Positions 6,143 through 47,938 of a DNA stretch of 64,000 bases are shown here, piece by piece; the stretch's first letter is position 1; every line of letters starts with the position of its first letter. This stretch comes from Candidatus Lloydbacteria bacterium RIFCSPHIGHO2_02_FULL_50_18 (lineage in GTDB: Bacteria; Patescibacteriota; Minisyncoccia; Phycocordibacterales; UBA6899). The notes under the pieces were generated by a model. It was not told the DNA's origin and made no database searches. It saw only the letters and a program-made list of their open reading frames with translations. The position numbers and the translations under genes are program-made. The stretch lies in NCBI GenBank assembly GCA_001821395.1, contig MHLM01000001.1:144021-208020 (forward strand), in the 5' to 3' direction.

Positions 6143-6622
6143 ATGCAACAAATATCGTCCCTCGGTGAGCTTTCGGCGATACAAAGTACCGCACTCGATG
6201 AAGCACTTCTAGTGCTAGAAAACTCCTACAATCCCTATTCTCACTTTTGTGTCGGGGCATGCCTCTATACACAAGACGGAAAACTGGTATCCGGAACAAA
6301 TGTCGAAAACGCTGCGTATGGTTCAACCATTTGCGCCGAACGTTCCGCCATTTTGAGTGCAAATGCACTCGGAATCAGACGATTCATTGGCATTGCGATC
6401 ATCGCGCGCGGAGAAAATTTCGACACAACGGAAGTCACTGGTCCGTGCGGAAGCTGTCGGCAAATGCTTTATGAACTTTCGCAAATTTCGAACTGCGACC
6501 TAGAGATCGTTCTTTCGACGTCAAAGAAGGATAAGATCATCGTAACAACAATCAAGGAACTTCTCCCGCTCGCCTTTGGCCCAGTTGATCTCGGCATCGA
6601 CATCACCAAGTATCAAAAATAA
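6143..6622 (+). CDS. cdd: Cytidine deaminase. Zinc ligands CAE and PCGSCRQ. RBS GGAGG 6 nt upstream of the start.
   Basis: 159-aa ORF with the CDA zinc-binding motifs. Confidence 0.8.
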   Translation: MQQISSLGELSAIQSTALDEALLVLENSYNPYSHFCVGACLYTQDGKLVSGTNVENAAYGSTICAERSAILSANALGIRRFIGIAIIARGENFDTTEVTGPCGSCRQMLYELSQISNCDLEIVLSTSKKDKIIVTTIKELLPLAFGPVDLGIDITKYQK

Positions 6623-6670
6623 TATGTCGGCAATAAAAAAGCGCTCTGATCGAGCGCTTTTTACTTGTAA

Positions 6671-7294
6671 CTATATCTTCCCAACCAGCTCAATCCCCGG
6701 CTTGAGTGTGACCTCTCCCGGTTCCCAGCTTGCGGGACACACATTGCCACCATGCTCAGCGACAAACTTTGCCGCACGTAATTTGCGGAGCAACTCCTTT
6801 CCGCTTCGTCCGATCGCATTGTCGTTGATCTCCATCGTCTTCAGCACCCCCTCAGGATCAACAATGAAGCTTCCGCGCAGAGAAAGCCCCGAGTCCCCGC
6901 CATCGGCAATATACGTTCCGAAGAGCATCGAAAGACTTCCGTCGGGGTCGGCGACCATCGGATATTGGATCTTCTTGATTGCAACCGAAGAATCGTGCCA
7001 TGCTTTGTGTGCGTACACCGTGTCAGTAGAAACCGAAAGCACCTCTGCACCTTCCTTTTTAAATTCTTCATACATGTCCGCCATTTCTTCAAGCTCAGTC
7101 GGGCAGACGAACGTAAAGTCTGCAGGGTAAAAGAAATAGATAACCCACTTTCCAAGGAGGTCTTTTGTCTTAATTTTCGTCAATGCATCATTTTTAGTAT
7201 CGTAGACGGCAAGCTCCATCTCTGGGAGCTTATCTCCGATCGACAGTGATACGTCAACCAGATCTCCACCGCATGCACAGGTCTCTTCATTCAT
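6671..7294 (-). CDS. 2-Cys peroxiredoxin (AhpC/TSA family). Active site FTFVCPTEL; resolving Cys in VCPA.
   Basis: Prx motifs in the translation. Confidence 0.8.
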   Translation of the reverse strand: MNEETCACGGDLVDVSLSIGDKLPEMELAVYDTKNDALTKIKTKDLLGKWVIYFFYPADFTFVCPTELEEMADMYEEFKKEGAEVLSVSTDTVYAHKAWHDSSVAIKKIQYPMVADPDGSLSMLFGTYIADGGDSGLSLRGSFIVDPEGVLKTMEINDNAIGRSGKELLRKLRAAKFVAEHGGNVCPASWEPGEVTLKPGIELVGKI

Positions 7295-23810: not shown

Positions 23811-23882
23811 GGCGTAGTGGCGAAGTGGTAACGCATAGATCTGCAAAATCTACATGCACCGGTCCGATTCCGGTCTACGCCT
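23811..23882 (+). tRNA. tRNA-Cys(GCA).
   Basis: Hand-folded. Anticodon loop cuGCAaa, T-arm accgg-tccgatt-ccggt. Confidence 0.8.
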
Positions 23883-23955
23883 CCCTAAAACATTTTGTTG
23901 CAAAATGTTCGGGCGATCATTTTGCAACAAAATGATTTAGCCATGAACAAATGCT

Positions 23956-24036
23956 GCCCGGGTGGTGAAATGGTATACACAGGAGACTTAAAATCTCCCG
24001 TCGCAAGGCATGTGGGTTCGACTCCCACCCCGGGCA
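23956..24036 (+). tRNA. tRNA-Leu(TAA).
   Basis: Hand-folded. Loop cuUAAaa, long variable arm, T-arm gtggg-ttcgact-cccac. Confidence 0.85.
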
Positions 24037-24038
24037 CA

Positions 24039-24205
24039 AAGTAAATAAATCCCTGATGGGATTTATTTACTTTGTGCCCGGGAGAAAGCAAGCTGCCTTG
24101 CTTTCGCGTGGGAGTCGAAGCCCGTTTCGTTATTTGCGAAGAATTCCTATTCTGAGAAAATCGAAATGGGGTGCTGACCCAGCAAAGATCGAACCTCCCA
24201 CGTTA
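24039..24205 (+). repeat. tRNA-linked element. Terminator agtaaataaatccc-tgat-gggatttatttact. Mirror tgtgcccggg[agaaagcaagctgccttgctttcgc]gtgggagtcgaagccc. Core GAATTCCTATTCTGAGAAAATCGAAATGGGGTGCTGACCCAGCA. Direct copy gatcgaacctcccacg.
   Basis: Read directly from the sequence. Confidence 0.7.
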
Positions 24206-24623
24206 ATAGTGTAAAATGAGTCAATGAATAAAAAGATCGTCGCATCACTGACTCTCTCAATCGTTGTTTCATTTCTGATAATAGTTACTGTTTCGAATTA
24301 TTTTGCTGAGAAAGAAATAGCGAACCAGCGCTCTGAATACACAACTCGAGGAATAGCCTTTGGCGAAACTCTTGCCCCGTAGGCATACCTTTTCCATATG
24401 CATGCATGGGGCTTTGTGTTCGTGAAACCAATATAAAAAATTTGCTTGTAGATGTGGTGATCTTTTGCATTCCCACATACATTCTTGTCTATGCTTTACT
24501 TGTTTTGATAGCCAAAAGAAGATCTCGAATAGGTGACGTTTCATCAAACGTAAATTAGCCCCAGTGTTCGAATCTATTGCGAATCTTCCTTGATTTGCTA
24601 TGATAGCGAAGTTAGGGAAAATT

Positions 24624-24697
24624 GCCTTCGTAGCTCAGTTGGTAGAGCAGCTCGCTCTTAACGAGACGGTCGCAGGTTCGAATCCTGCCGGGGGCAC
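24624..24697 (+). tRNA. tRNA-Lys(CTT). CCA is encoded.
   Basis: Hand-folded. Loop cuCUUaa, T-arm gcagg-ttcgaat-cctgc. Confidence 0.8.
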
Positions 24698-24700
24698 CAT

Positions 24701-24880
24701 AAAAAAATCCGCGACAAGCGGATTTTTTTATGGTGCCCCCGAAGAAGTGCCCTGCGGCACTTCTGGCAGGATTCGAAGCCGTTCTCCCATATTTCTGAAT
24801 GATTCATATCATGAGGAAATGGGAAACGGGTACTGACGCAGTAGGCGTCGAAACTCCTGCCGTGAGATTTCAAAAGACTG
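24701..24880 (+). repeat. tRNA-linked element. Terminator aaaaaaatccgcgacaagcggattttttt. Mirror tggtgcccccg[aagaagtgccctgcggcacttctg]gcaggattcgaagcc. Core GTTCTCCCATATTTCTGAATGATTCATATCATGAGGAAATGGGAAACGGGTACTGACGCAGTAGGCG. Direct copy tcgaaactcctgccgtgag.
   Basis: Read directly from the sequence; the core is about 80% identical to the unit after tRNA-Val(GAC). Confidence 0.7.
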
Positions 24881-25070
24881 AGTATATTTCGCATGCCTGC
24901 GCATGCAGGTCTTCAAAATACGAAACCCAACATGCAGAGCTTGTCTTCGTGTCCCCAATGGCATCGGTGTGATTTCGCACTTGCGAACAAGTCTATGAGA
25001 ACCCAACTGATGTCGGTTTATTCTTCCACTTCCCTTTTATCCAAATTCCAGTACTATAGCCCTACACCCT

Positions 25071-25152
25071 GCCCAGGTGGCGTAATTGGTAGCCGCGCCA
25101 GTCTTAGGAACTGGTCTCGCAAGAGGTGGAGGTTCAAGTCCTCTCCTGGGCA
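25071..25152 (+). tRNA. tRNA-Leu(TAG).
   Basis: Hand-folded. Anticodon stem ccagt/actgg, loop cuUAGga, long variable arm. Confidence 0.8.
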
Positions 25153-25400
25153 CAAAGAAAACCGCGTAAGCGGTTTTTGTGTGCCCAGAGCGACTGAATA
25201 CTACAAAGAGTACTTCATTTTTCTAAAGCAGAATACTGCTAAGAAAAATTGGTCGCACCACAGAGAGTACTTCATTTTTCTAGAGCAGAATACTGCTAAG
25301 AAAAATTGGTCGCTGCTTCAGTCGCGCGAGAGGACTTGAAGCCGTTCTCCTGTATTTTTGAAGATTTCTTAATCTGACAGGTAGCCCAAATCTTGCACGC
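25153..25400 (+). repeat. tRNA-linked element. Terminator aaaaccgcgtaagcggtttt. Mirror tgtgcccagag[~130-nt insert]gagaggacttgaagcc. The insert is a hairpin (gcgactgaa ... ttcagtcgc) whose loop holds 2 x 52-bp tandem repeats (AGAGTACTTCATTTTTCTARAGCAGAATACTGCTAAGAAAAATTGGTCGC). Core spacer GTTCTCCTGTATTTTTGAAGATTTCTTAATCTGACAGG.
   Basis: Read directly from the sequence. Confidence 0.65.
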
Positions 25401-25438: not shown

Positions 25439-27166
25439 TCATTCATTTCCCATCAATTCGTTTATTTTAGCCGAAGTGGTTTTACCAACATATCCGGTCC
25501 CCCTAACAAGACCCCAGGGCGCTAAAACATCTTCGGTATATTTTTCTTGGAATTTTATAACTGCTTTATAAGTCAAGAGGCCGAAATAATCAGTTTCCTT
25601 ACCCGGAGAGCCAACACCCGAATCAGCCAATCGAGTATCGGGGTCGGAATTGAGGAAAATTTGCAAGCGTTTTATGTCTGCATTTGTTTGTCGGTATTGT
25701 CGGTATTGAGTAAATGGGTTAGTAAATGGCAAAATATTTATTCGCAAATTTTCCGTTACAGTAGTACCCGATCTTAGAACGATTATGCTTGAAGCAGTAT
25801 CTGATGATCTGCCGTAGGCAGTGTAAAATTTAACATAAACGGTATATTGTCCATCCGGACAGATTAGATTTTTAAGTGTACCGCCAAATTTTGAGCATAA
25901 GTCCCATAGCTTGAAGGCGACATAATCTTCTCGGCTGGCATCAGTGAAATCTCCAGTCATTGAAATCGCCAATTGCTTGATGTCCATTCCCGCATTAAAA
26001 CCAAGTATGACATTTCTATTTGACGTTGTGCTTGATCCGGAATTTACAAAAACCTTAAATCCACCTGTCGGCGTTATCGGCAAATTACTCCAACCTGCTG
26101 GCATACCACCTCCCCCACTTGAAGTTACAGCAGGAGTTACTAAGACGGCGTCCCAAATCAAAGTAAAATTATGAGAGTTGGAATTTCCGACGTTATCTGA
26201 GGCAGTAAAACTGATTACATAAGTTCCGTTAGTATCGACTGAGATAGTTGTGCTCGACGCGGTACCGTCTCCAAACGTTACCGCACCAGGTCCTGAAACT
26301 TTTGCCCACTGATAAGTTGAAGCGTTCATATCGCTCCCGGAATCTGAAGCTGCAGCGACTTGAGTAAATGTAGCTCCTTTATTTTGATCATCTCCAGCAC
26401 TAATGGTGGGATTTTGTTTATCAATTTTTATGATATTTGACGATTCTGTGTTCTCAATATTCCCTAAATTATCTACTGAGTAGTACCTTATATATTGCTG
26501 ACAACTAGAACCTGAGTCACACGACAAACTAACACTTGTTCCTTCAGTGGTTGGCACGCAGCTATTATTAGTGTCAACGCAATAATATGTATGCGCTATT
26601 CCGCTTCCGCTATTATCAGACGGGTTCAAATTAATAGTAAGATCTGAACTATGCCAATTATCATCAGCATTATCGGTTGTAGTTGGAGACGTATTTCCCA
26701 CTACAATCGATTCATTAAATGAAACGCTCCAATCGTAAAGGGGCAGTCCGGTACTGCCTGAAGATGGCGATACGCTCGTATCTGTATCTCGAATATTACC
26801 ACCTACGGCAGTAGCATCGCCGGCTTGTGCGCACCAAGATGCAACAACATAGCAACTCCAGGCGTATCTCAAATGTTGATCTGTGCCAGTCGGCGTATCA
26901 CTTAGAGTAATTTTTACTTGACTGTTATTATTTATAAGTTCTACTGAATCTATTGAAACACTATTGCCACCAGCCTGTGTAAATTCAAACCCATAATCAG
27001 GACGCTCCGCAACGTTGGCAGTATCAATAGCTAATGTTCCATAAGGGATATTATAATTGGCGATTATTACGTTACTCGATCTCAAAATCGATGATGGCAT
27101 GAGGGGATTCCAAGTCTGTCCCTCAAACAATACTTTATCCATAACTTTTGCAAACATCTCTCCCAT
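25439..27166 (-). CDS. C-terminal part of a giant surface protein: Ig-like/beta-rich region plus a C-terminal peptidoglycan-binding domain (YFGLLTYKAVIKFQ ... GYVGKTTSAKINEL). Probably continuous with the upstream ORF via an A8 homopolymer frameshift.
   Basis: PGBD motif. The 85-nt overlap with the upstream ORF contains A8 at 27166-27173; one extra A would fuse the two frames. Confidence 0.6.
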   Translation of the reverse strand: MGEMFAKVMDKVLFEGQTWNPLMPSSILRSSNVIIANYNIPYGTLAIDTANVAERPDYGFEFTQAGGNSVSIDSVELINNNSQVKITLSDTPTGTDQHLRYAWSCYVVASWCAQAGDATAVGGNIRDTDTSVSPSSGSTGLPLYDWSVSFNESIVVGNTSPTTTDNADDNWHSSDLTINLNPSDNSGSGIAHTYYCVDTNNSCVPTTEGTSVSLSCDSGSSCQQYIRYYSVDNLGNIENTESSNIIKIDKQNPTISAGDDQNKGATFTQVAAASDSGSDMNASTYQWAKVSGPGAVTFGDGTASSTTISVDTNGTYVISFTASDNVGNSNSHNFTLIWDAVLVTPAVTSSGGGGMPAGWSNLPITPTGGFKVFVNSGSSTTSNRNVILGFNAGMDIKQLAISMTGDFTDASREDYVAFKLWDLCSKFGGTLKNLICPDGQYTVYVKFYTAYGRSSDTASSIIVLRSGTTVTENLRINILPFTNPFTQYRQYRQTNADIKRLQIFLNSDPDTRLADSGVGSPGKETDYFGLLTYKAVIKFQEKYTEDVLAPWGLVRGTGYVGKTTSAKINELMGNE

Positions 27167-29169
27167 TTTTTTTCTTGGGTATTCACGTCCATATGGAGCT
27201 TGTCCGACCGATAATGATATTGATACTTTGGCTGGACCAAAATAATTTTTCCGGGATTATCTATATGCGCGTTTAATTGTGCTTCAGCTATTTCCCCCGT
27301 TGGCGCGGAATTCATTTGATTTATAAATAATGGGATAGTGTCGTTACGGCTAGTCAGAGTATTAAGATCGGTTTCATAATCCAACTGCCATTCTTCAAGA
27401 TAACTTTTATAATTTGCTCCGGCACCACCCACATAATCACTTTCTCCGTGAATTGAAGTAACTGCGATGGGTCGATACAGCTCGCCTAGCGTACTCTCAA
27501 CGTAAGTTTTAGTTACACTTGCCTGTGTCATACCCTTGTTATACCAAGATGTCCCCTTTTTTAAACCACTGTAGTTAGTTCCACCATGTGCATGGAGGCC
27601 AACGACAATTGGACTGAGAAGATCTTCATACGCATGAAGGCTATTGGCCATTCCTGATGAGATTGTTTCCACATTACCGCCCTCTCCTTGCCCAGACTCA
27701 ATTAATGGTATGAGCGGAGCAGCTGTTCCTTCAACTCCGGGGGTAAGCATAAGATTATTATAAGGCTGCGTAACGCTTATAGGCGGTGAAGCATAATAAA
27801 CTACGGCCAGACTTTGCCCCGTTGACAATATCTGATAGTAGGTTGTTTGCTCATTTACCGCGAAGGAAACAGTCCCGGAATTATTTGTAAGAGCAGGAGT
27901 TGCTGACACGCTTATTATATGAGGAGACCCACTCGTACTTGTAGGTGTATAGGTGAATGTTTTTGCATCTGACGAACCGGACCACGACAACGAAGTTGGC
28001 GCAAACGTTCCGGCACCAGTTGATGACGATGTAATCGTGCCGGTATATTCGCCATCAGGCGTCACAATAAAATTACCGGATGCTGTAGCCATCGTGCCAG
28101 ACGACGGGCCGGCAAAAGTAAATGATGTAGCGGGTGGCGCAAGGGTGACGACTGAAAATTCAGAACTGTCTGCGGTTGCAGGGACGCCATCGGTAACCCT
28201 GAGCTTGTAATAATAAATCGTAGCGGGAGATAGTCCGGTATCTGATAATGTGAGCGATGTTTGTCCGCTTAAAATATTCCCAACACCCGGCGTAAAACCG
28301 CTGCTTATGCTACGGTACCACTGATAAATATAGGGTGCTATTCCTCCTGTTGCTTCCGAAGATGAAAGATCGATACTTGAATCTGTTTTCTCCATTAAAC
28401 TAATTGAGCCGGCGCTAAAAGTAGAAAACGGATATTCAAGCCCTGTGCCCGAATTGTATAAACTCGTGATCTCATCTGGAGTTAGTATTTTTTTCCAAAA
28501 ACCAACAGAATCAATGCGCCCGTCCAAATACATTGTAGCACCAGAAGCCTGAAATCTCCCGATTGTAAATGCTGCGCTAGTATTTGCCGGCTCGGAACCG
28601 GCGACGCTTGTATTGGTATACGTATTATTAACAGTTATGGTATTAGTATGAGTGGTAGCATTGTGGCTACATGTGAGAAAATACCATTGGCCAATCTGGA
28701 CTCCCCCCGTTGGAGTCACATATGCATCTACCGATGGAAAAGTAGAACAGCGAAACGTGTCGGAACTAACACCGTAATACAAAGCATATTCTCCGGTGCT
28801 GCCATATTTTCCAACAAACGTCATATTTGTTGATTTGGTATCAAGATAGACCCATGCAGAAATAGTAAAATCTATACCGCCTATACTCAAACTGGGATTA
28901 TCAACGATGCTTAAATATTCTGAGTTAGCCATAGTTAACTGCGCAGAATTTCCAAGTTTGCCAACTCCTTGAGTCACCGTATTGTTGTCGGTCAGATTAT
29001 TTGAACTAACACTATCTGCTCGCGTACCACTTACCTCATCTAATTTCCAATAAGAAATAAGTGATGTGGATAAATCCGTTGCAAAAACATGAGAGAAAAA
29101 TTGTGTGTACAACGACACCGAAATTAAAAGCAGGGCAAATATTTTAAAATTTTTTCGAAAGGTTTTCAT
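27082..29169 (-). CDS. N-terminal part of the giant surface protein: signal peptide, LamG/concanavalin-like domain (DFTISAWVYLD), Ig/FN3-like Thr/Ser-rich repeats.
   Basis: Signal peptide and LamG-like motif. Confidence 0.6.
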   Translation of the reverse strand: MKTFRKNFKIFALLLISVSLYTQFFSHVFATDLSTSLISYWKLDEVSGTRADSVSSNNLTDNNTVTQGVGKLGNSAQLTMANSEYLSIVDNPSLSIGGIDFTISAWVYLDTKSTNMTFVGKYGSTGEYALYYGVSSDTFRCSTFPSVDAYVTPTGGVQIGQWYFLTCSHNATTHTNTITVNNTYTNTSVAGSEPANTSAAFTIGRFQASGATMYLDGRIDSVGFWKKILTPDEITSLYNSGTGLEYPFSTFSAGSISLMEKTDSSIDLSSSEATGGIAPYIYQWYRSISSGFTPGVGNILSGQTSLTLSDTGLSPATIYYYKLRVTDGVPATADSSEFSVVTLAPPATSFTFAGPSSGTMATASGNFIVTPDGEYTGTITSSSTGAGTFAPTSLSWSGSSDAKTFTYTPTSTSGSPHIISVSATPALTNNSGTVSFAVNEQTTYYQILSTGQSLAVVYYASPPISVTQPYNNLMLTPGVEGTAAPLIPLIESGQGEGGNVETISSGMANSLHAYEDLLSPIVVGLHAHGGTNYSGLKKGTSWYNKGMTQASVTKTYVESTLGELYRPIAVTSIHGESDYVGGAGANYKSYLEEWQLDYETDLNTLTSRNDTIPLFINQMNSAPTGEIAEAQLNAHIDNPGKIILVQPKYQYHYRSDKLHMDVNTQEKKWERCLQKLWIKYCLRDRLGIPSCHHRF

Positions 29170-29599: not shown

Positions 29600-30586
29600 A
29601 TGACTATTTCTGAAAGCACCTTAGACAAGGTCGGCGCAATGGGCGCTGCATTCTCTCTCATTGACCTCATTCGCGGGTTCAGCCATGGAGGCGTTCACGT
29701 CGGCGGAGGCACGGGCGGAGTAGGTTTTCTTACTTCTCTTCTCACTGTGCTCGTCAGAGTATGGGAAGAAAAAGGCGGGAGCATGAAAGACGAAAGCGAA
29801 ATGCTCGAGTCAATGTTTGCAAACCCGCAAGCAAAGAATGAAAAACTCACACCGCAGGAACGTACCAAGATCGCGGCCGTCATCAAGGCGATGACTCCGG
29901 CAGAGCAGAAAGTGTTCCGCATCGCAATTTTTGTGATGGACCCCGATGTGACGACGATCGAAGTACCGGAGAAAAAAGACAAGGACGGCAAAGTCATCGC
30001 TGTAGCCGGAAAACGAACCGAAAAAACGGGAATTGATCCTCGGGTCAATGTCCTGCACGGTATCGCCGAGCACGTCCATGACAACCTCGATAACGTCACC
30101 GAAGTGGCCGAATTACTTCGCGGTACGGGGGCGCTGGGTGGAAACAACGAGGCACTTAAGTTTCTCGTCAAGGTACAAGTAGAGCTCAAAAAGCTTCTTT
30201 GCACGTTCTTCGGGGTCGAATCCGTCGATCTTATCACCTTCGACATGGTCAAAGAAAAGGCAACCGTGCTCATCGGAAATATCGGTGTGCCGAATGCCAA
30301 TTTGCCGGGACCTCCGGTCGGTCCGCTCATGCGAGTGGGTCGCCTCATCACGCCGGGGAGTTATCGCAATGCTCCTGCATCGAAAAGCGTGAAGTCCAAG
30401 AAAGAGGTAAGGTCGACGAGCCTGCTGAAGATGTTTGCAGTGGTAGCATGTATCACCGGCATCCTCGCTTACGGCTTGTACTTCGGAGCTTCAAAGTACC
30501 GAGCGTACCAAAGAGATACTGAGATTGACAACATCATCAACGCGTATCAACCGACCAAAACGTCGGCTGAGCAGCCGATGAAATAG
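29600..30586 (+). CDS. Hypothetical protein, 328 aa. Gly-rich N-terminus (GGVHVGGGTGGVGF), C-terminal TM anchor.
   Basis: ORF with strong promoter and RBS. Confidence 0.55.
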   Translation: MTISESTLDKVGAMGAAFSLIDLIRGFSHGGVHVGGGTGGVGFLTSLLTVLVRVWEEKGGSMKDESEMLESMFANPQAKNEKLTPQERTKIAAVIKAMTPAEQKVFRIAIFVMDPDVTTIEVPEKKDKDGKVIAVAGKRTEKTGIDPRVNVLHGIAEHVHDNLDNVTEVAELLRGTGALGGNNEALKFLVKVQVELKKLLCTFFGVESVDLITFDMVKEKATVLIGNIGVPNANLPGPPVGPLMRVGRLITPGSYRNAPASKSVKSKKEVRSTSLLKMFAVVACITGILAYGLYFGASKYRAYQRDTEIDNIINAYQPTKTSAEQPMK

Positions 30587-30604
30587 GTCTCAAGGAGAAA
30601 TCTC

Positions 30605-32227
30605 ATGAGTTTATGGAAAAAAGCAGGCTACGGCCTTTTGGGAATTTCGGCCATTCTCGGTCGAAGGACCCTCTCGTCCGCATACGACCGCCAGATCGAG
30701 GGCATTACCGACGCGCATATCAAATATGTCGGCGGCGCAATGCTCTTCGGAGTTTGCGGTCTCGTGCTTAACTTCATCTTTTTGATGAATGGGATGCACG
30801 GCATGCAAACAGCGCTCTTCGGAGTTATCTGTCTTGCGTCACTGTATTACATGATCGCGCCAAAAATGAGCATTCCGCTCATCATCGCGGCCGCAGCGGT
30901 TCATGCCGGAGAGGCGAAAGATCAAGCGAAGCTCAAACTGCTCGGCGACGGAGTGAAAGACATTGTCAATCTGGCAAGTCTGGCACTCTTTTGGATCGGT
31001 GTGTACATCGTCGGAACGATCATTGCCCCATGGGACTTGAGTTGGGAATTCTTTCTTTTCCTTCACATGTTCATCATCATGGCACTACTGCTCTTTGTGA
31101 GCGGCAAGGCATCGGTCAGCACGAAAGTGTACGATAATTGCTTCAAGTTCACCATTGCTGTGATCGTTGTCAGCGTACTCACGATCGCAATCGGACGTGA
31201 GCACGTAGGACCATTATGGGCGCAATTCTCCGCAAGCAAAACTTCTCGTATCGAGGCCAAGTTGAACGCAAGTTCGATTAAGACCGCAGACGAAGCGTCA
31301 GCCGAGTGGATTGAGAAGAATGTTCACATCGATAAGCGGACCGGTGAGCAATTCGTCATCGTTACCGACAAGGTCACCGGCAAACAAAAACCGGTCGCCG
31401 CACAGCCCTACATTGAGAGGGAGAAGCAACGCAGGAACGAAACCATCCGCTCGGTCACGGAAAAAGGCGGAAAGACCAATGCGACAAACACGAGACAGGA
31501 TAATAAGGGAGGTTACTTCTCTTATGAATACTGGAACGCAAAAGCGCATGAATGGTCGGAATCCTGGGGGGTACCACTCTTCGTCGGCATCATTGCAGTA
31601 TTGGCAATGGTCGTGGCACACTTCATTCCCGTCATCTGGGGAGGAAAGAAACTCTTTGGAAAGTCAGGTACTGAAACGGCAAAGGTTGTTAGTACGCCGA
31701 AGGAGTCCGGAAACGGACTTGTTGCCACATTACTCGTTGCGGGTGCTCTCGTGTATATTGGCTTTCAGTATACGCAAGGTGAACGAGGAGCAAAAGCCAA
31801 TATGGCACCGCAAACAAGCGTTGCGACATATGCCACACTAAAGAAAGGAGATGCCGGTCTGTGGATGGCCTACTGGAGTGACATGAACGGGCACTCCATT
31901 TACAGACTTCCTCAAGATAGATGGCATGGGCGAACTGTTTCGCTTTTGCCAGGCAGCTCTGTTTCGAATGTGTCCGACATCACGCTTGTTTTTGATCCTA
32001 ATGATCCAAGTACCAATATCTCATTTAACGGAGATTGCGTTGCCGGTAGCTACGATATTCAAAAAGAGTGCGTCGGATACTGGAGAACAGAAGTGGGGTC
32101 CGGTACTTTCAGGCTTGAATGGTGGGGAAGCCAGGAAACATTCCACATTGCACTGTTTCCGGGACAACTGCCGGCAAAAGGACAGGCACAAGCCATCAAG
32201 GAGATACGCTTCGTAAAAAAACAATGA
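30605..32227 (+). CDS. Hypothetical polytopic membrane protein, 540 aa. About 5-6 N-terminal TM helices, two further TMs, and a C-terminal soluble domain. No ATPase motifs.
   Basis: ORF with hydrophobic segments. Confidence 0.55.
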   Translation: MSLWKKAGYGLLGISAILGRRTLSSAYDRQIEGITDAHIKYVGGAMLFGVCGLVLNFIFLMNGMHGMQTALFGVICLASLYYMIAPKMSIPLIIAAAAVHAGEAKDQAKLKLLGDGVKDIVNLASLALFWIGVYIVGTIIAPWDLSWEFFLFLHMFIIMALLLFVSGKASVSTKVYDNCFKFTIAVIVVSVLTIAIGREHVGPLWAQFSASKTSRIEAKLNASSIKTADEASAEWIEKNVHIDKRTGEQFVIVTDKVTGKQKPVAAQPYIEREKQRRNETIRSVTEKGGKTNATNTRQDNKGGYFSYEYWNAKAHEWSESWGVPLFVGIIAVLAMVVAHFIPVIWGGKKLFGKSGTETAKVVSTPKESGNGLVATLLVAGALVYIGFQYTQGERGAKANMAPQTSVATYATLKKGDAGLWMAYWSDMNGHSIYRLPQDRWHGRTVSLLPGSSVSNVSDITLVFDPNDPSTNISFNGDCVAGSYDIQKECVGYWRTEVGSGTFRLEWWGSQETFHIALFPGQLPAKGQAQAIKEIRFVKKQ

Positions 32228-32311: not shown

Positions 32312-32668
32312 CTAAATAGGAACAGTTGTTTGAATAGTAGGCGCGGTACCCAGTCCGCCGAGCGGTGCAAGTCCCAATTCTGTTTGGATGAATCCGATGA
32401 TCGACCAGAGCGCTACAATCACAAAAATACCCACCATGCCCCATACGAGAAACATCCTCCCCTCCTGCACCGCCTTCTCATCATCGGCATGCCAAATGAA
32501 TTTTACGACACCCCAAAAAAATACCGCAACCGCACAACCCAACAGTACGGGCATGATGGTCTGCATGAGATTAATGAGATCATCCATGATGGTGATCACC
32601 GACGTCTGAGCAAGTGCAAATGTTGGTAAGAAAAAAAACGTACCGAGAATAAAAGATCGTTTAGACAT
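32312..32668 (-). CDS. Small secreted 2-TM protein, paralog 1 of 8. VirB2/TrbC pilin-like topology (signal peptide, TM1 FFWGVVKFI, loop HADDEKAVQEGR, TM2 WGMVGIFVIVALW).
   Basis: Paralog alignment by eye. Confidence 0.55.
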   Translation of the reverse strand: MSKRSFILGTFFFLPTFALAQTSVITIMDDLINLMQTIMPVLLGCAVAVFFWGVVKFIWHADDEKAVQEGRMFLVWGMVGIFVIVALWSIIGFIQTELGLAPLGGLGTAPTIQTTVPI

Positions 32669-32981
32669 AATTCATCAGCGTCATATCGCCGCCTATTGAG
32701 CTAATAAGGAATCGCATGATACCAAACACGGCAACCATGATGAACATGCCAATGATACCCCATATCATACCGAGACGCCCCTTATCGCGCATCTCCGCAT
32801 TATCCGGATTCCAGATATACGCGACCACTCCGTAGATAAAATAGACGGTCGCGAGTGCAAAGAGCAAAGCGATGATAGGATTCAAAATATACGTCGAGAT
32901 GTTGCCGACGAAAGTGAGCACCGATGCGGGAATCGGGGGCGCAGCTGCTTCTGCTACGCTTGGAAAAAAAATGTTTAACAT
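32661..32981 (-). CDS. Small secreted 2-TM protein, paralog 2 (start at MLNIFF; loop NPDNAEMRDKGR).
   Basis: Paralog alignment by eye. Confidence 0.5.
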   Translation of the reverse strand: MLNIFFPSVAEAAAPPIPASVLTFVGNISTYILNPIIALLFALATVYFIYGVVAYIWNPDNAEMRDKGRLGMIWGIIGMFIMVAVFGIMRFLISSIGGDMTLMNYV

Positions 32982-33084
32982 GAATAAATTATAGCATCTC
33001 AATAAAAATTGACTATCCGAATGAGCAAACAAAAACCCCCGAGAACATTCTCGGGGGGTTTTTGTAATCCTATTTTTATCAGGA

Positions 33085-33441
33085 CTAGACTCCAGGAACA
33101 GCAAATGCTGGTGGTGTTGACGTGGTTATTGTCCCAGTCAATCCAAGCTGAGTCTGAGCCCAACCAAGAATACCCCAGAGAGCGACCATGACAAAGATCG
33201 CAACCATACCCCAGATCATAAGCGTCTTACCCTGCTCCTTTGCGGCTTCATCGCTTGCATTAGCGATATATTTGACCAAGCCCCAAAAGAACGCAACGAC
33301 CGCAAGACCCATGAGTAATGGGATCAAAAGCGAGATAATACCCTGAACGCTGTTTACGAGATCGGCGATACCGGTGAGCACGGTTGCTGCAGAAGCAACT
33401 GCGGGACCCACAAGCATCATTCCGATGATAAATTTCTTCAT
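33085..33441 (-). CDS. Small secreted 2-TM protein, paralog 3 (start MKKFIIG, signal peptide ending ASA; loop NASDEAAKEQGK).
   Basis: Paralog alignment by eye. Confidence 0.55.
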   Translation of the reverse strand: MKKFIIGMMLVGPAVASAATVLTGIADLVNSVQGIISLLIPLLMGLAVVAFFWGLVKYIANASDEAAKEQGKTLMIWGMVAIFVMVALWGILGWAQTQLGLTGTITTSTPPAFAVPGV

Positions 33442-33615
33442 AGATTTGATAATAATTAATAAATACACCGCCAAAACTATAACTTAATGCTATCGCACAA
33501 ACCGATGTCAAGCAATAGAAAAAAAAGATACCTGTGGATTACTGTTTCCGTTACCCGGAATCACAAAAATCGACCTCTTCACATGCCTGATGATCATATT
33601 TTTGTACGATAAGAG

Positions 33616-36891: not shown

Positions 36892-37452
36892 CTATGCCCG
36901 CATCTCCGTACTATTCACCTGATAAAGACCTTTCCGAAATATAAGACCATAATGAAAATTTCCCGCATTGACTGTTTTTTCAAAGGTGAAATTCAGCGAT
37001 TCAACGAGCTTTCGCGCTTCTGTTTCAGGAAACACTTGTTCGGTCGTCGGTCCCATATTATTGAAAGACGCCGTCCAGTCGATCAGCATGAGTCTTCCAC
37101 CCTGCTTGAGTACTCGGCGTGCCTCATCCAGAACGTTTTTTTTATCGGATGCCTGAAAGAGCACGTTCGAAACAACGACGACATCGCATACCCCATCGCT
37201 CAATTTCGTCCCGCCCAAAAGTTCGACATCTCCCCAGAGAAATGAAACATTGCCGATGTGCTTTTCTTTACAGGTATTTTCGAGGCGCGTAAGCAAGTCC
37301 TTTTGCACCTCGATCGCGTACACCTTCCCTGTTCCGTGCATGGCTTCTGCCGCAGCGATTGTATATGCACCCGACCCCGCGCCAAAATCTGCAACCACCA
37401 AATTATCGGCTAACCCTAATTGTTCGATATTCTTCTCCGGTGCTGAAAACAT
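36892..37452 (-). CDS. Class I SAM-dependent methyltransferase (motif I VADFGAGSG).
   Basis: Rossmann MTase motif. Confidence 0.7.
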   Translation of the reverse strand: MFSAPEKNIEQLGLADNLVVADFGAGSGAYTIAAAEAMHGTGKVYAIEVQKDLLTRLENTCKEKHIGNVSFLWGDVELLGGTKLSDGVCDVVVVSNVLFQASDKKNVLDEARRVLKQGGRLMLIDWTASFNNMGPTTEQVFPETEARKLVESLNFTFEKTVNAGNFHYGLIFRKGLYQVNSTEMRA

Positions 37453-45860: not shown

Positions 45861-46511
45861 ATGAGCACCCAAAATAACCCCGTTTCAGATCAGCAAGACA
45901 CGCACAACATCAACACAGAGAGCACAGAGGGGACGAACAGGAATGAGGGGAAAATTTCTACACTCAGGGTCATTTGGGAAACCGTGCGCTACGCGATCAT
46001 CGCCGCACTCATCATCATCCCCATTCGCACCTTCGTCGCACAGCCGTTTGTCGTATCCGGTAACTCTATGTATCCCACCTTTGAGAATGGGCAATATCTT
46101 ATCGTCGATGAAACAGCAAAATACATCGGTGAATATCATCGTGGTGATGTGGTCATTCTTCGCTACCCCAATGATCCGTCAAAATTCTTCATCAAGCGCG
46201 TAATCGGACTCCCCGGAGAAACGGTGACCATTCAAAATGGCAAGGTTTCAATCACCAGCGCAACACAGAAAGAACCGTTGCTGTTGGATGAGCCCTATGT
46301 GAAAAATCCAAAGTTCGACAGCTCTTCACGCACGCTCGATAACGAAGAATTCTTCGTGATGGGCGACAATCGCGCACAAAGCTCCGACTCGCGTGTATGG
46401 GGCCCGGTACCAAGACGGCTCATGGACGGCAATGCGTTACTCCGACTGTATCCCCTCACGCTCGTCGCTCTCCATCCGGGAGGAATTCAAAGCTTTGGGG
46501 TCACCTATTGA
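45861..46511 (+). CDS. lepB: Signal peptidase I (SGNSMYPTF; GDNRAQSSDSR).
   Basis: S26 Ser and Lys boxes. Confidence 0.8.
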   Translation: MSTQNNPVSDQQDTHNINTESTEGTNRNEGKISTLRVIWETVRYAIIAALIIIPIRTFVAQPFVVSGNSMYPTFENGQYLIVDETAKYIGEYHRGDVVILRYPNDPSKFFIKRVIGLPGETVTIQNGKVSITSATQKEPLLLDEPYVKNPKFDSSSRTLDNEEFFVMGDNRAQSSDSRVWGPVPRRLMDGNALLRLYPLTLVALHPGGIQSFGVTY

Positions 46512-46546
46512 TTATTTTTATTATTTATTCATTTAGTCTTCACGCT

Positions 46547-47938
46547 ATGACAAAGAAAGAGTCCGAAAAGAAAGAGATACCGACAGCCCTCAAGGGAATG
46601 AGAGACCTGATCGGTGATGAATCACACAAGTACCAGGGCTTTTTTGAAAAGGCAGCGGAGGTTGCTATCTATTACGGATTTCAGCCGATCGATGTGCCGA
46701 TCATGGAGCGCGAGGAGGTGTTCCTCTCTACGCAAAGCGAAGACACCGATCTCGTGGGGAAAGAAATGTACTCACTCAAGACAAAGAGCGGGGAAAAACT
46801 CGCGTTGCGTCCCGAGGGTACCGCTCCCGTGATGCGCGCGTATCTTGAGCATGGCATGCAGTCACATCCGCAGCCCGTAAAATTCTACTACTACGGCTCA
46901 TTTTTTCGTCACGACAATCCTCAACGCGGTCGCTATCGTGAATTCAAGCAGTTTGGCATTGAGATGATCGGCTCATCGAAATCGATCAGTGACGCAATGG
47001 TGATCTATTTGAACGCTACCATCCTAAAAGAGGTCGGTCTCACAAACATCATGATTGATGTGAACTCGATCGGAGACAAGGAATCACGCGCGCCATATCT
47101 TCGTGAACTCACCGCATACTACCGAAAACATATCAATCACCTGTGTGCGAACTGTAAGCAGCGCATCAAGACGAACCCCCTGCGCCTGCTCGATTGTAAA
47201 AGTCCCGAGTGCCAACCATTCAAAGAGAAAGCTCCGCAATCGATCGCCCATCTTTCACCTGCAGCAAAACAGCACTTCAAGGAGGTCCTCGAGTTCCTTG
47301 ATGCGCTCAAGCTCACCTATCGCATCAATACTAATCTCGTTCGCGGTCTCGACTATTACACACATACGGTCTTTGAGATCACCGAGATCCCCGACGACCG
47401 ACCGGCTGAGATCTTTGCCGAGAACGCAACACAGCTCGAAGCCACAGATAAGGAGAAGGACGACAAGAAAAAGAAGCATGAGCGTGAAGACGCGGAAAAT
47501 GCGCCGATGTCCATCGCCGGAGGAGGTCGTTATGATTACCTTGCGAAACGCCTCGGAAGCAAAAAAGACATTCCCGCAGTCGGAAGCTCCATCGGTGTCG
47601 ATCGTGTGCTATTGTCCCCCAACTACAAAGGCTCGGCACCACGCATCGTAAAGAAGCCGAAGATCTATTTCATCCAGCTTGGTTTCGAGGCAAAACTAAA
47701 GTCACTCGAGATCATTGAAGTACTGCGTAACGCACGTATTCCCGTTGTTCATGCACTCAACAAAGATTCGCTCGGAGCACAGCTTGGTATCGCCGAGAGA
47801 ATGCAGGTTCCCTATGCGCTCATCTTTGGACAGAAGGAAGCGCTTGAAGGCACGGTGATTGTGCGCAACATGCTCACCCGCTCACAGGAGACAATAAAGA
47901 TCGCAAAGCTGGCGGATTATATAAAAGCCATCAAATAG
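46547..47938 (+). CDS. hisS: Histidyl-tRNA synthetase (start MTKKESEKK; motif LRPEGTAPVMRAY).
   Basis: Class II aaRS HisRS motifs. Confidence 0.85.
   Translation: MTKKESEKKEIPTALKGMRDLIGDESHKYQGFFEKAAEVAIYYGFQPIDVPIMEREEVFLSTQSEDTDLVGKEMYSLKTKSGEKLALRPEGTAPVMRAYLEHGMQSHPQPVKFYYYGSFFRHDNPQRGRYREFKQFGIEMIGSSKSISDAMVIYLNATILKEVGLTNIMIDVNSIGDKESRAPYLRELTAYYRKHINHLCANCKQRIKTNPLRLLDCKSPECQPFKEKAPQSIAHLSPAAKQHFKEVLEFLDALKLTYRINTNLVRGLDYYTHTVFEITEIPDDRPAEIFAENATQLEATDKEKDDKKKKHEREDAENAPMSIAGGGRYDYLAKRLGSKKDIPAVGSSIGVDRVLLSPNYKGSAPRIVKKPKIYFIQLGFEAKLKSLEIIEVLRNARIPVVHALNKDSLGAQLGIAERMQVPYALIFGQKEALEGTVIVRNMLTRSQETIKIAKLADYIKAIK

Follow-up and report, generated by a model that had tools for sequence, protein, structure and literature searches.

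A surface esterase gene of a Candidatus Lloydbacteria population, probably split by an authentic and recent single-base frameshift at an A8 run

The 64-kb stretch of DNA from Candidatus Lloydbacteria bacterium RIFCSPHIGHO2_02_FULL_50_18 that was analyzed here (the window; 48% GC, all coordinates being window positions) carries on its minus strand two overlapping open reading frames (ORFs) which meet at a run of eight adenines (A8). The organism belongs to the Parcubacteria of the candidate phyla radiation (CPR). The two ORFs and the elements at their junction are as follows.

27082..29169, minus strand: upstream ORF, 695 amino acids; residues 1-668 are the authentic ancestral N-terminal part, followed by a 27-residue out-of-frame tail
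27082..27165, minus strand: out-of-frame tail of the upstream ORF, WERCLQKLWIKYCLRDRLGIPSCHHRF followed by a TGA stop
25439..27166, minus strand: downstream ORF, 575 codons from the first ATG, the ancestral C-terminal part
27166..27173, minus strand (27173 to 27166 on the coding strand): A8 run, the frameshift site, T8 on the plus strand
27166..27172, minus strand: slippery heptamer A_AAA_AAA, a perfect X_XXY_YYZ in the upstream frame (GA-A_AAA_AAA-TGG)

The 695- and 575-residue frames overlap by 85 nucleotides, and the coding strand at the junction reads ACC CAA GAA AAA AAA TGG GAG AGA TG, the last A of the run also being the first base of the ATG of the 575-codon ORF. Passing from the upstream into the downstream frame requires a shift of −1. 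If one A is added at the run, a single uninterrupted ORF of 1243 codons is obtained, which reads ...NTQEKKMGEMFAKVMDKV... across the junction. The initial annotation of this DNA had described the two ORFs, their overlap, the A8 run and the joining of the frames by an extra A, all of which was confirmed from the sequence; its size of approximately 1,270 amino acids has to be corrected to 1243 for the fused product, as the overlap had been counted twice. With 11 runs of eight A or T in the window an A8 run alone is not unusual; among the same-strand ORF junctions of the window, only that of the split gene contains a homopolymer in its overlap. Two other same-strand overlapping ORF pairs were considered as frameshifts and rejected: the pair at 6143-7130 (a deaminase and a protein of no assigned identity) and the pair at 45861-47938 (a signal peptidase and a histidyl-tRNA synthetase) are distinct genes with no homopolymer at the junction.

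A homology search with the fused protein returned the identical 695-residue product (P0002; NCBI OGZ05239.1/OGZ10391.1), a hypothetical protein of a Candidatus Lloydbacteria metagenome-assembled genome (MAG) of the RIFCSPHIGHO2 series, together with the longer unbroken relatives P0001 (1350 amino acids, 79% identity), P0003 (1294 amino acids), P0004 (1231 amino acids), P0005, P0006 and P0007. Six close homologues align unbroken through ...SDKLHMDVNTQEKxMGEMFAKV..., and in this alignment D656, H659, K667, G670, E671, M672, A674 and K675 are invariant on both sides of the junction. After a second search 44 homologues (33-86% identity) were found to span the junction with at least 20 residues on each side in one polypeptide, while no intact allele of more than 86% identity was returned by it. 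The split arrangement is conserved in 0 of the 44, the only proteins that stop or start at the junction are the window's own alleles, and the 27-residue tail has a counterpart in no homologue in the alignments. Judged by these alignments, a single ancestral gene, which encoded a large secreted protein of several domains, was broken into the two ORFs by a one-nucleotide frameshift at the A8 run, and the proposal of a single gene split at this run was borne out. The passage of the homology to 44 unbroken proteins from one frame to the other exactly at the A8 run is, by the same alignments, beyond chance. An alternative genetic code was considered and is irrelevant here, as the homology passes into the −1 frame regardless of the meaning of TGA.

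Matches to Pfam were scored on the fused 1243-residue protein. Residues 1-668 of the upstream ORF comprise the signal peptide, a LamG domain, two Fn3/Ig-like domains and most of an esterase domain. The downstream ORF of 575 codons, which is without a signal peptide of its own, adds the last esterase helix and a beta-sandwich, then one PKD and one Ig-like domain, and has a PG_binding_1-like end. The individual features are given below.

N-terminus, minus strand: signal peptide, MKTFRKNFKIFALLLISVSLYTQFFSHVFA followed by TD, read by direct inspection
28468..28917, minus strand: Laminin_G_3 / concanavalin-like lectin domain, residues 85-234, Pfam E=2.8e-17
26696..27861, minus strand: conserved core module, SGNH/SASA-type esterase with C-terminal beta-sandwich, fused residues 437-825
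27811..27819, minus strand: GQS motif, putative nucleophile serine block, residues 451-453, invariant in 13 aligned homologues
Fused residues 502-677: SASA (PF03629), 22.3 bits against a Pfam gathering cut-off of 24.8, E=1e-4, just below the cut-off
27193..27204, minus strand: D-K-L-H, putative DxxH catalytic block, residues 656-659, D and H invariant
26159..26386, minus strand: PKD / K319L-like PKD domain, fused residues 929-1004, above the Pfam gathering cut-off
25538..25633, minus strand: PG_binding_1-like segment, weak, fused residues 1180-1211, E=0.026, below the Pfam cut-off

The signal peptide and the LamG domain that had been named in the initial annotation are both found in the fused protein. 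A C-terminal peptidoglycan-binding domain had been named as well; the match is weak in the window's protein itself, and the domain (PF01471) is carried by the aligned homologues P0004 and P0005. In a similar way a precomputed PF03629 annotation is present on some homologues. Ig-like repeats had also been named; the protein has two Fn3/Ig-like domains upstream and a PKD and an Ig-like domain downstream. The central SASA/SGNH module had gone unmentioned. The description as an adhesin is too narrow: because the conserved core is that of an SGNH/SASA carbohydrate O-acetylesterase, the ancestral product was probably a secreted and, again probably, wall-associated enzyme that deacetylates sugars, rather than a pure adhesin. 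The specificity of this putative esterase is presumptive.

The core module of approximately 390 residues is the most conserved part of the protein and forms one continuous block in all homologues. At residue 668, nine residues behind the DxxH block, it is cut by the frameshift. Across 13 sequences, G451-Q452-S453, H574-G575-E576 and D656/H659 do not vary. Searched against the PDB as a single sequence with phmmer, the core gave no matches; a profile of the module matched one solved structure, the cyanopodophage Pan3 tailspike (9vyh), collinear over both halves. This tailspike is the only solved structure that is sequence-related to the CPR module of esterase and beta-sandwich, and the module is therefore evidently common to phage receptor-destroying spikes and CPR surface proteins. 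An AlphaFold (AF2) model of the core, of modest quality (mean predicted local distance difference test score, pLDDT, of 62; predicted template modelling score of 0.68; weakest in the first third), consists of an alpha/beta domain and, behind it, a beta-sandwich. In this model, helix 664-682 is the last helix before the beta-sandwich, and the junction (residue 668) is at the start of this helix. A Foldseek search with the model returned 9vyh, XAC1771 (7kmm), the deacetylase FI8, SIAE (8f9p/8f9r), 2apj and 1zmb with probability 1.0. XAC1771 has been described as a CE20 xyloglucan acetylesterase of the SGNH type (PMC8245568).

With the solved SGNH/SASA esterases (PF03629, DUF303), namely the CE20 enzyme XacXaeA/XAC1771 (7kmm), SIAE (8f9p) and the Pan3 tailspike (9vyh), the window module shares the alpha/beta core, the order of blocks GQS...HGE...DxxH and the C-terminal beta-sandwich. 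The sequence identity to them is only 12-18%, and the X448 domain that is inserted in XacXaeA is absent from the window module. Unlike the solved esterases, it is embedded in a surface protein with LamG, Fn3, PKD and peptidoglycan-binding domains.

One protein with a different layout was observed. In P0172 (402 amino acids, on a Logan contig of 2071 nucleotides) the beta-sandwich half starts almost exactly at the equivalent of the junction (core residue 231), and its N-terminal 247 residues are unrelated to the module. As the beta-sandwich half begins there, the frameshift site may be near a natural boundary between domains.

The exact 695-residue product including the shifted tail was read on 15 contigs. 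Six of the loci fetched as DNA show 100% identity throughout the gene, with A8 in each of them (ENA ERZ27254752, ERZ28563803 (SAMN03842431) and ERZ27254846; JGI 3300002502 and 3300002529; Logan SRR2090155). A seventh locus, L013 (SAMN03842435), has a 21-nucleotide in-frame deletion and keeps the A8 in its DNA, and the haplotype P0122 (SRR3989338), known as protein only, has two amino-acid substitutions and the same shifted tail. All seven contigs that were fetched therefore carry the A8 run; they represent five or more sample or run identifiers and three or more assembly pipelines, and the shifted tail is common to three haplotypes in all. Independence in this context refers to samples and assemblers, not to lineages. 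The A8 products are found under two NCBI MAG accessions each by exact-sequence look-up, and the same kind of look-up among approximately 15 billion proteins returned none of the products expected from A9 (1243 amino acids), A7 or A10. Pattern scans for other tract lengths in collections of genome and metagenome contigs, with a variable gap as well as with a fixed flank, gave zero matches, although the pattern does match the window; as this population is absent from those collections, the zero is uninformative about variants. Within relA/spoT, gyrA and the genes of a methyltransferase, a sortase and a pilin-like protein, five further A/T runs of eight nucleotides leave the reading frame intact. 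An intergenic run at approximately 24700-24708, which adjoins tRNA-Lys (24624-24699), has a length of 7 in the window and 8 in L013. Either the run length varies in the population at this site or it is assembled so; because the run differs between assemblies, homopolymer variation is detectable in these data. From these contigs we conclude that A8 represents the true majority genotype in every sampled population.

The deletion in L013 (scaffold_44869 of SAMN03842435) is located at window positions of approximately 27984-28007 (L013 nucleotide ~2187). It removes FAPTSLS from the second Fn3/Ig-like domain, and its edges are formed by a CGT microhomology.

The DNA of six relatives was compared with the window at the junction in a MAFFT alignment, and the sequences at the site are the following.

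L014: GAA AAA CAA ATG
L007: GAA AAA CAG ATG
L008: CAG AAA CAA ATG
L009: GAA AAG CGT ATG
L011: GAG AAA CAC GCG
L012: GAA AAA CAG ATG

The single gap of the window falls exactly at a C found in each of the six relatives, and none of them has a homopolymer longer than five at the site. Deleting this C from GAAAAACAAATG yields GAAAAAAAATG, which is the window sequence; L014 is the most similar relative over the junction-spanning stretch. Because all six relatives have the C at the gap, the A8 run was most likely born of the mutation and is most likely no older contingency tract: a one-step deletion of the C (A5-C-A3 to A8) would have caused the frameshift and created the run together. It is this presumptive order of mutational events that we adopt in the following. 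The residue at the gap position is variable among the homologues (H, Q, R, L, W, N and others), so that a K at this position, as expected in an A9 revertant or a slippage product, should be tolerated.

Taken together, we consider it likely that the locus represents an authentic, population-fixed and probably recent frameshift that has split a surface esterase gene of Candidatus Lloydbacteria. A single-base deletion in the chromosome of a groundwater population would have divided a gene of 1243 codons, which ancestrally would have encoded, in this order, a signal peptide, a LamG lectin-like domain, two Fn3/Ig-like domains, the esterase with its beta-sandwich, the PKD and Ig-like domains, and a peptidoglycan-binding-like C-terminus. 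The loss of the C in ...GAA AAA CAA ATG... would have fused A5 and A3 into A8. Standard decoding would then give a secreted product of 695 residues which keeps the catalytic Ser, HGE and DxxH blocks, loses the last esterase helix and every later domain, and gains a nonsense tail of 27 residues. The downstream 575 codons, having no signal peptide, would probably be translated poorly or not at all, and a loss of function would presumably follow. By accident the deletion would have provided a new site which combines the A8 run with a perfect −1 slippery heptamer. A small full-length fraction with K in place of Q could arise there by transcriptional slippage or −1 ribosomal frameshifting in the manner of a “pseudo-pseudogene”, and replication slippage from A8 to A9 could revert the mutation.

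Leaky rescue of this kind, by transcriptional or ribosomal slippage at the A8 site, is plausible in principle. A −1 ribosomal slip at A_AAA_AAA, or one extra A in the mRNA, would read ...QEKKMGEMFAK.... The predicted peptides that would mark the full-length product are the junction peptide LHMDVNTQEKKMGEMFAK or KMGEMFAK, and those that would mark the truncated product are the tail peptides CLQK, LWIK, YCLR and DRLGIPSCHHRF. A frameshifted apoB allele with a run of eight A gives about one tenth of full-length product, runs of this length are productive in some insertion sequence (IS) elements, and “pseudo pseudogenes” arise from single insertions or deletions in A runs (PMC1088944). According to the same source the threshold for slippage is commonly nine A, with eight being productive in some taxa; the run length of eight in the window has to be seen against this common threshold of nine for slippage of the bacterial polymerase. 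PMC12946587 describes DMD c.2281delG, by which A4GA5 is turned into A9, with rescue.

Throughout the sampled assemblies the allele is fixed, and no decay was seen downstream of the lesion, where the 575 codons contain no stops and every invariant residue of the module is kept. Because of both observations the event is either recent, or the downstream part is still useful or expressed. The direction of a relative-rate test for faster downstream evolution was inconsistent and varied with the outgroup.

Several points weigh against a recent, authentic frameshift as proposed here. The evidence was obtained at the level of assemblies, which minority A9 or A7 alleles could escape, and read sets or a single clonal aquifer population may be common to a number of these assemblies. 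The undecayed downstream part and the fixed state of the allele fit continued function, by recoding or by independent translation, equally well as they fit a very recent pseudogene. The route by deletion of the C is an argument of parsimony, to which a C-to-A substitution (Q to K, giving A9) followed by a change from A9 to A8 represents a two-step alternative. Finally, the AF2 model is of the modest quality given above, its confidence being low for the first third of the module.

We regard a sequencing or assembly indel, in which the true genome would be intact (A9 or A5CA3) and A8 an error of the consensus, as very unlikely, although this had been offered in the initial annotation as an equal alternative. 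A homopolymer is the classic site of indel errors, the sequence stems from a MAG, and the intergenic run differs by one between two assemblies. This has to be set against the agreement of all seven fetched contigs across samples and pipelines, the three haplotypes with the shifted tail, the absence of the intact product from the 15 billion proteins, and the five other eight-nucleotide runs that are in frame within conserved genes; Illumina consensus errors at runs of eight nucleotides are rare. The authentic lesion could in turn be the OFF state of a phase-variable contingency locus, in which slipped-strand mispairing between A8 (OFF) and A9 (ON) toggles a surface protein. The gene indeed encodes a large secreted surface-type protein with signal peptide, LamG, PKD and peptidoglycan-binding-like parts, and A8 can slip in replication to an A9 that would place a tolerated residue at a variable position. 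Yet only A8 was seen in the fetched contigs and in the exact-protein look-up, with no length variant; the tract is absent from 6 of 6 relatives, in which a C lies inside the run and the longest A run is five; and none of the 44 homologues is split. The run is located mid-gene and is most simply explained as made by the inactivating deletion itself, and eight A's are a short tract for efficient switching. The earlier suggestion of a classic contingency locus is consequently not supported, and we consider phase variation quite improbable.

The slippery site might also be kept by selection as a recoding site or reversible switch, with programmed −1 ribosomal frameshifting at A_AAA_AAA and/or transcriptional slippage at A8 giving two useful products: a released, soluble truncated LamG-esterase and a wall-anchored full-length enzyme of low abundance, the latter made by slippage of polymerase or ribosome or by reversion from A8 to A9 in a subpopulation. 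This would explain both the fixed allele and the undecayed 575 codons, and it is in agreement with the perfect heptamer in the correct frame, the required shift of −1, the occurrence of the frameshift allele in three haplotypes, and the precedent for rescue at runs of eight to nine A (PMC1088944; for nine, PMC12946587). We nevertheless judge it to be unlikely. The frameshift is found in 0 of 44 homologues, and the 127 nucleotides downstream fold no better than shuffled sequences (minimum free energy of −23.8 compared to −24.7±3.4, z=+0.27), giving no sign of a stimulatory structure there. No GGAGG-like motif that could act as a Shine-Dalgarno (SD)-like stimulator lies within 25 nucleotides upstream of the site, the site itself is most simply a by-product of the C deletion, and the haplotypes are almost identical, so that their persistence says little. 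Separate translation of both ORFs, which would then act as two proteins, could likewise account for a downstream part that is kept. In-frame ATGs are present at the junction (M1, M4, M9) with GGGAG just upstream of M4, gene callers as well as the NCBI annotate two proteins, and SD motifs are rare in the genome, so that the absence of an SD is uninformative. Against this, the GGGAG is separated from the ATG by only two nucleotides, and a scan for promoters and terminators around the junction gave counts equal to the shuffled expectation, with no internal promoter signal above chance. The downstream product would have no signal peptide although its PKD, Ig-like and peptidoglycan-binding domains are of extracytoplasmic types, and the cut interrupts a helix of a compact module which the 44 homologues and the solved tailspike 9vyh have in one piece. 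Such a functional split is, in our estimation, highly improbable.

The authentic frameshift favored here can be compared to a number of known systems. It resembles the “authentic frameshift” or “pseudo-pseudogene” genes (Baranov, Hammer, Zhou, Gesteland & Atkins 2005, Genome Biol, PMC1088944) in that an indel of one nucleotide relative to single-ORF homologues lengthens an A run. In both, a single mutation that is not conserved in orthologues is concerned, and part of the transcripts could regain the frame by slippage of RNA polymerase. The window gene differs from them in its run of eight instead of the usual nine and in belonging to an uncultivated CPR bacterium. In the A8 allele of apoB (PMC1088944) and in DMD c.2281delG (PMC12946587) the loss of a lone non-A base both shifts the frame and builds the A run, as we infer for the step from A5-C-A3 to A8 in the window; these two cases are eukaryotic and their rescue was measured, whereas rescue in the window gene is a possibility. 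With the bacterial −1 programmed sites of dnaX (A_AAA_AAG) and of the IS3 and IS1 families (A_AAA_AAG/A_AAA_AAC) the site shares the in-register X_XXY_YYZ heptamer, which in the window is all A, and the need for a −1 shift. It differs from these in that an SD-like stimulator is absent upstream, no hairpin or pseudoknot exceeds background downstream, and the arrangement is not conserved in the homologues. The contingency loci in surface and restriction-modification genes of Neisseria, Haemophilus, Campylobacter and Helicobacter have in common with the window gene a homopolymer in a surface-protein gene, where a change of one unit toggles the full-length product. In contrast to these host-adapted loci the window tract is short (eight), lies mid-gene, is absent from relatives, showed no length polymorphism in the fetched contigs and was probably born of the mutation.

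For annotation, two “hypothetical proteins” of GenBank (OGZ05239.1 and OGZ05238.1) can be described as one disrupted gene of a secreted SGNH/SASA-type carbohydrate O-acetylesterase. The locus also illustrates that a frameshift mutation may itself produce the homopolymer found at its site (A5-C-A3 to A8) instead of being caused by it, which calls for caution before contingency loci are proposed. If the site were leaky or reversible, it would represent the first documented case of recoding or phase switching in a CPR/Patescibacteria surface enzyme; nothing found requires this, and the split gene is a fresh example of a well-known type of event.

The split gene is followed directly downstream by a cluster of four tRNA genes (23811-25153; Cys-GCA, Leu-TAA, Lys-CTT, Leu-TAG) out of 11 tRNA genes in the window. 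Between tRNA-Leu(tag) and the 3' end of the split gene the following repeat is located.

25203-25313, intergenic, between tRNA-Leu(tag) (25071-25153) and the 3' end of the split gene: tandem repeat of 57 nucleotides, 1.9 copies, 96% match

This repeat creates a spurious ORF of 148 amino acids (24893-25339). A GC-rich hairpin precedes the intergenic run at approximately 24700-24708 (minus strand: TCCGCTTGTCGCGGA and after it the run of T), and the arrangement is terminator-like.

On the other side, two ORFs of 328 and 540 amino acids (29600-32227, plus strand) with no Pfam match are divergent from the split gene, which they accompany on all of the longer contigs. Further out, at 32661-33474 on the minus strand, there are two or three small T4SS_pilin-like (PF18895) ORFs. 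L013 departs from the window upstream of 29991, inside the 328-residue ORF (29600-30586): its nucleotides 1-199 are without a match there and represent either a strain rearrangement or a chimeric contig end.

Most of the well-supported genes in the window are without an SD motif, for example those starting at 37452, 17909 and 18569 (all minus strand), and several have a TATAAT-like box approximately 10-20 nucleotides from the ATG. Both features suggest that leaderless or SD-independent initiation is frequent in this genome.

Two independent short contigs, L004 (ENA) and L005 (JGI), end within approximately 20 nucleotides of each other in the PKD region of the split gene (window ~26402-26419). 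These paired ends hint at strain heterogeneity, or at a repeat common to other PKD genes that breaks the assemblies.

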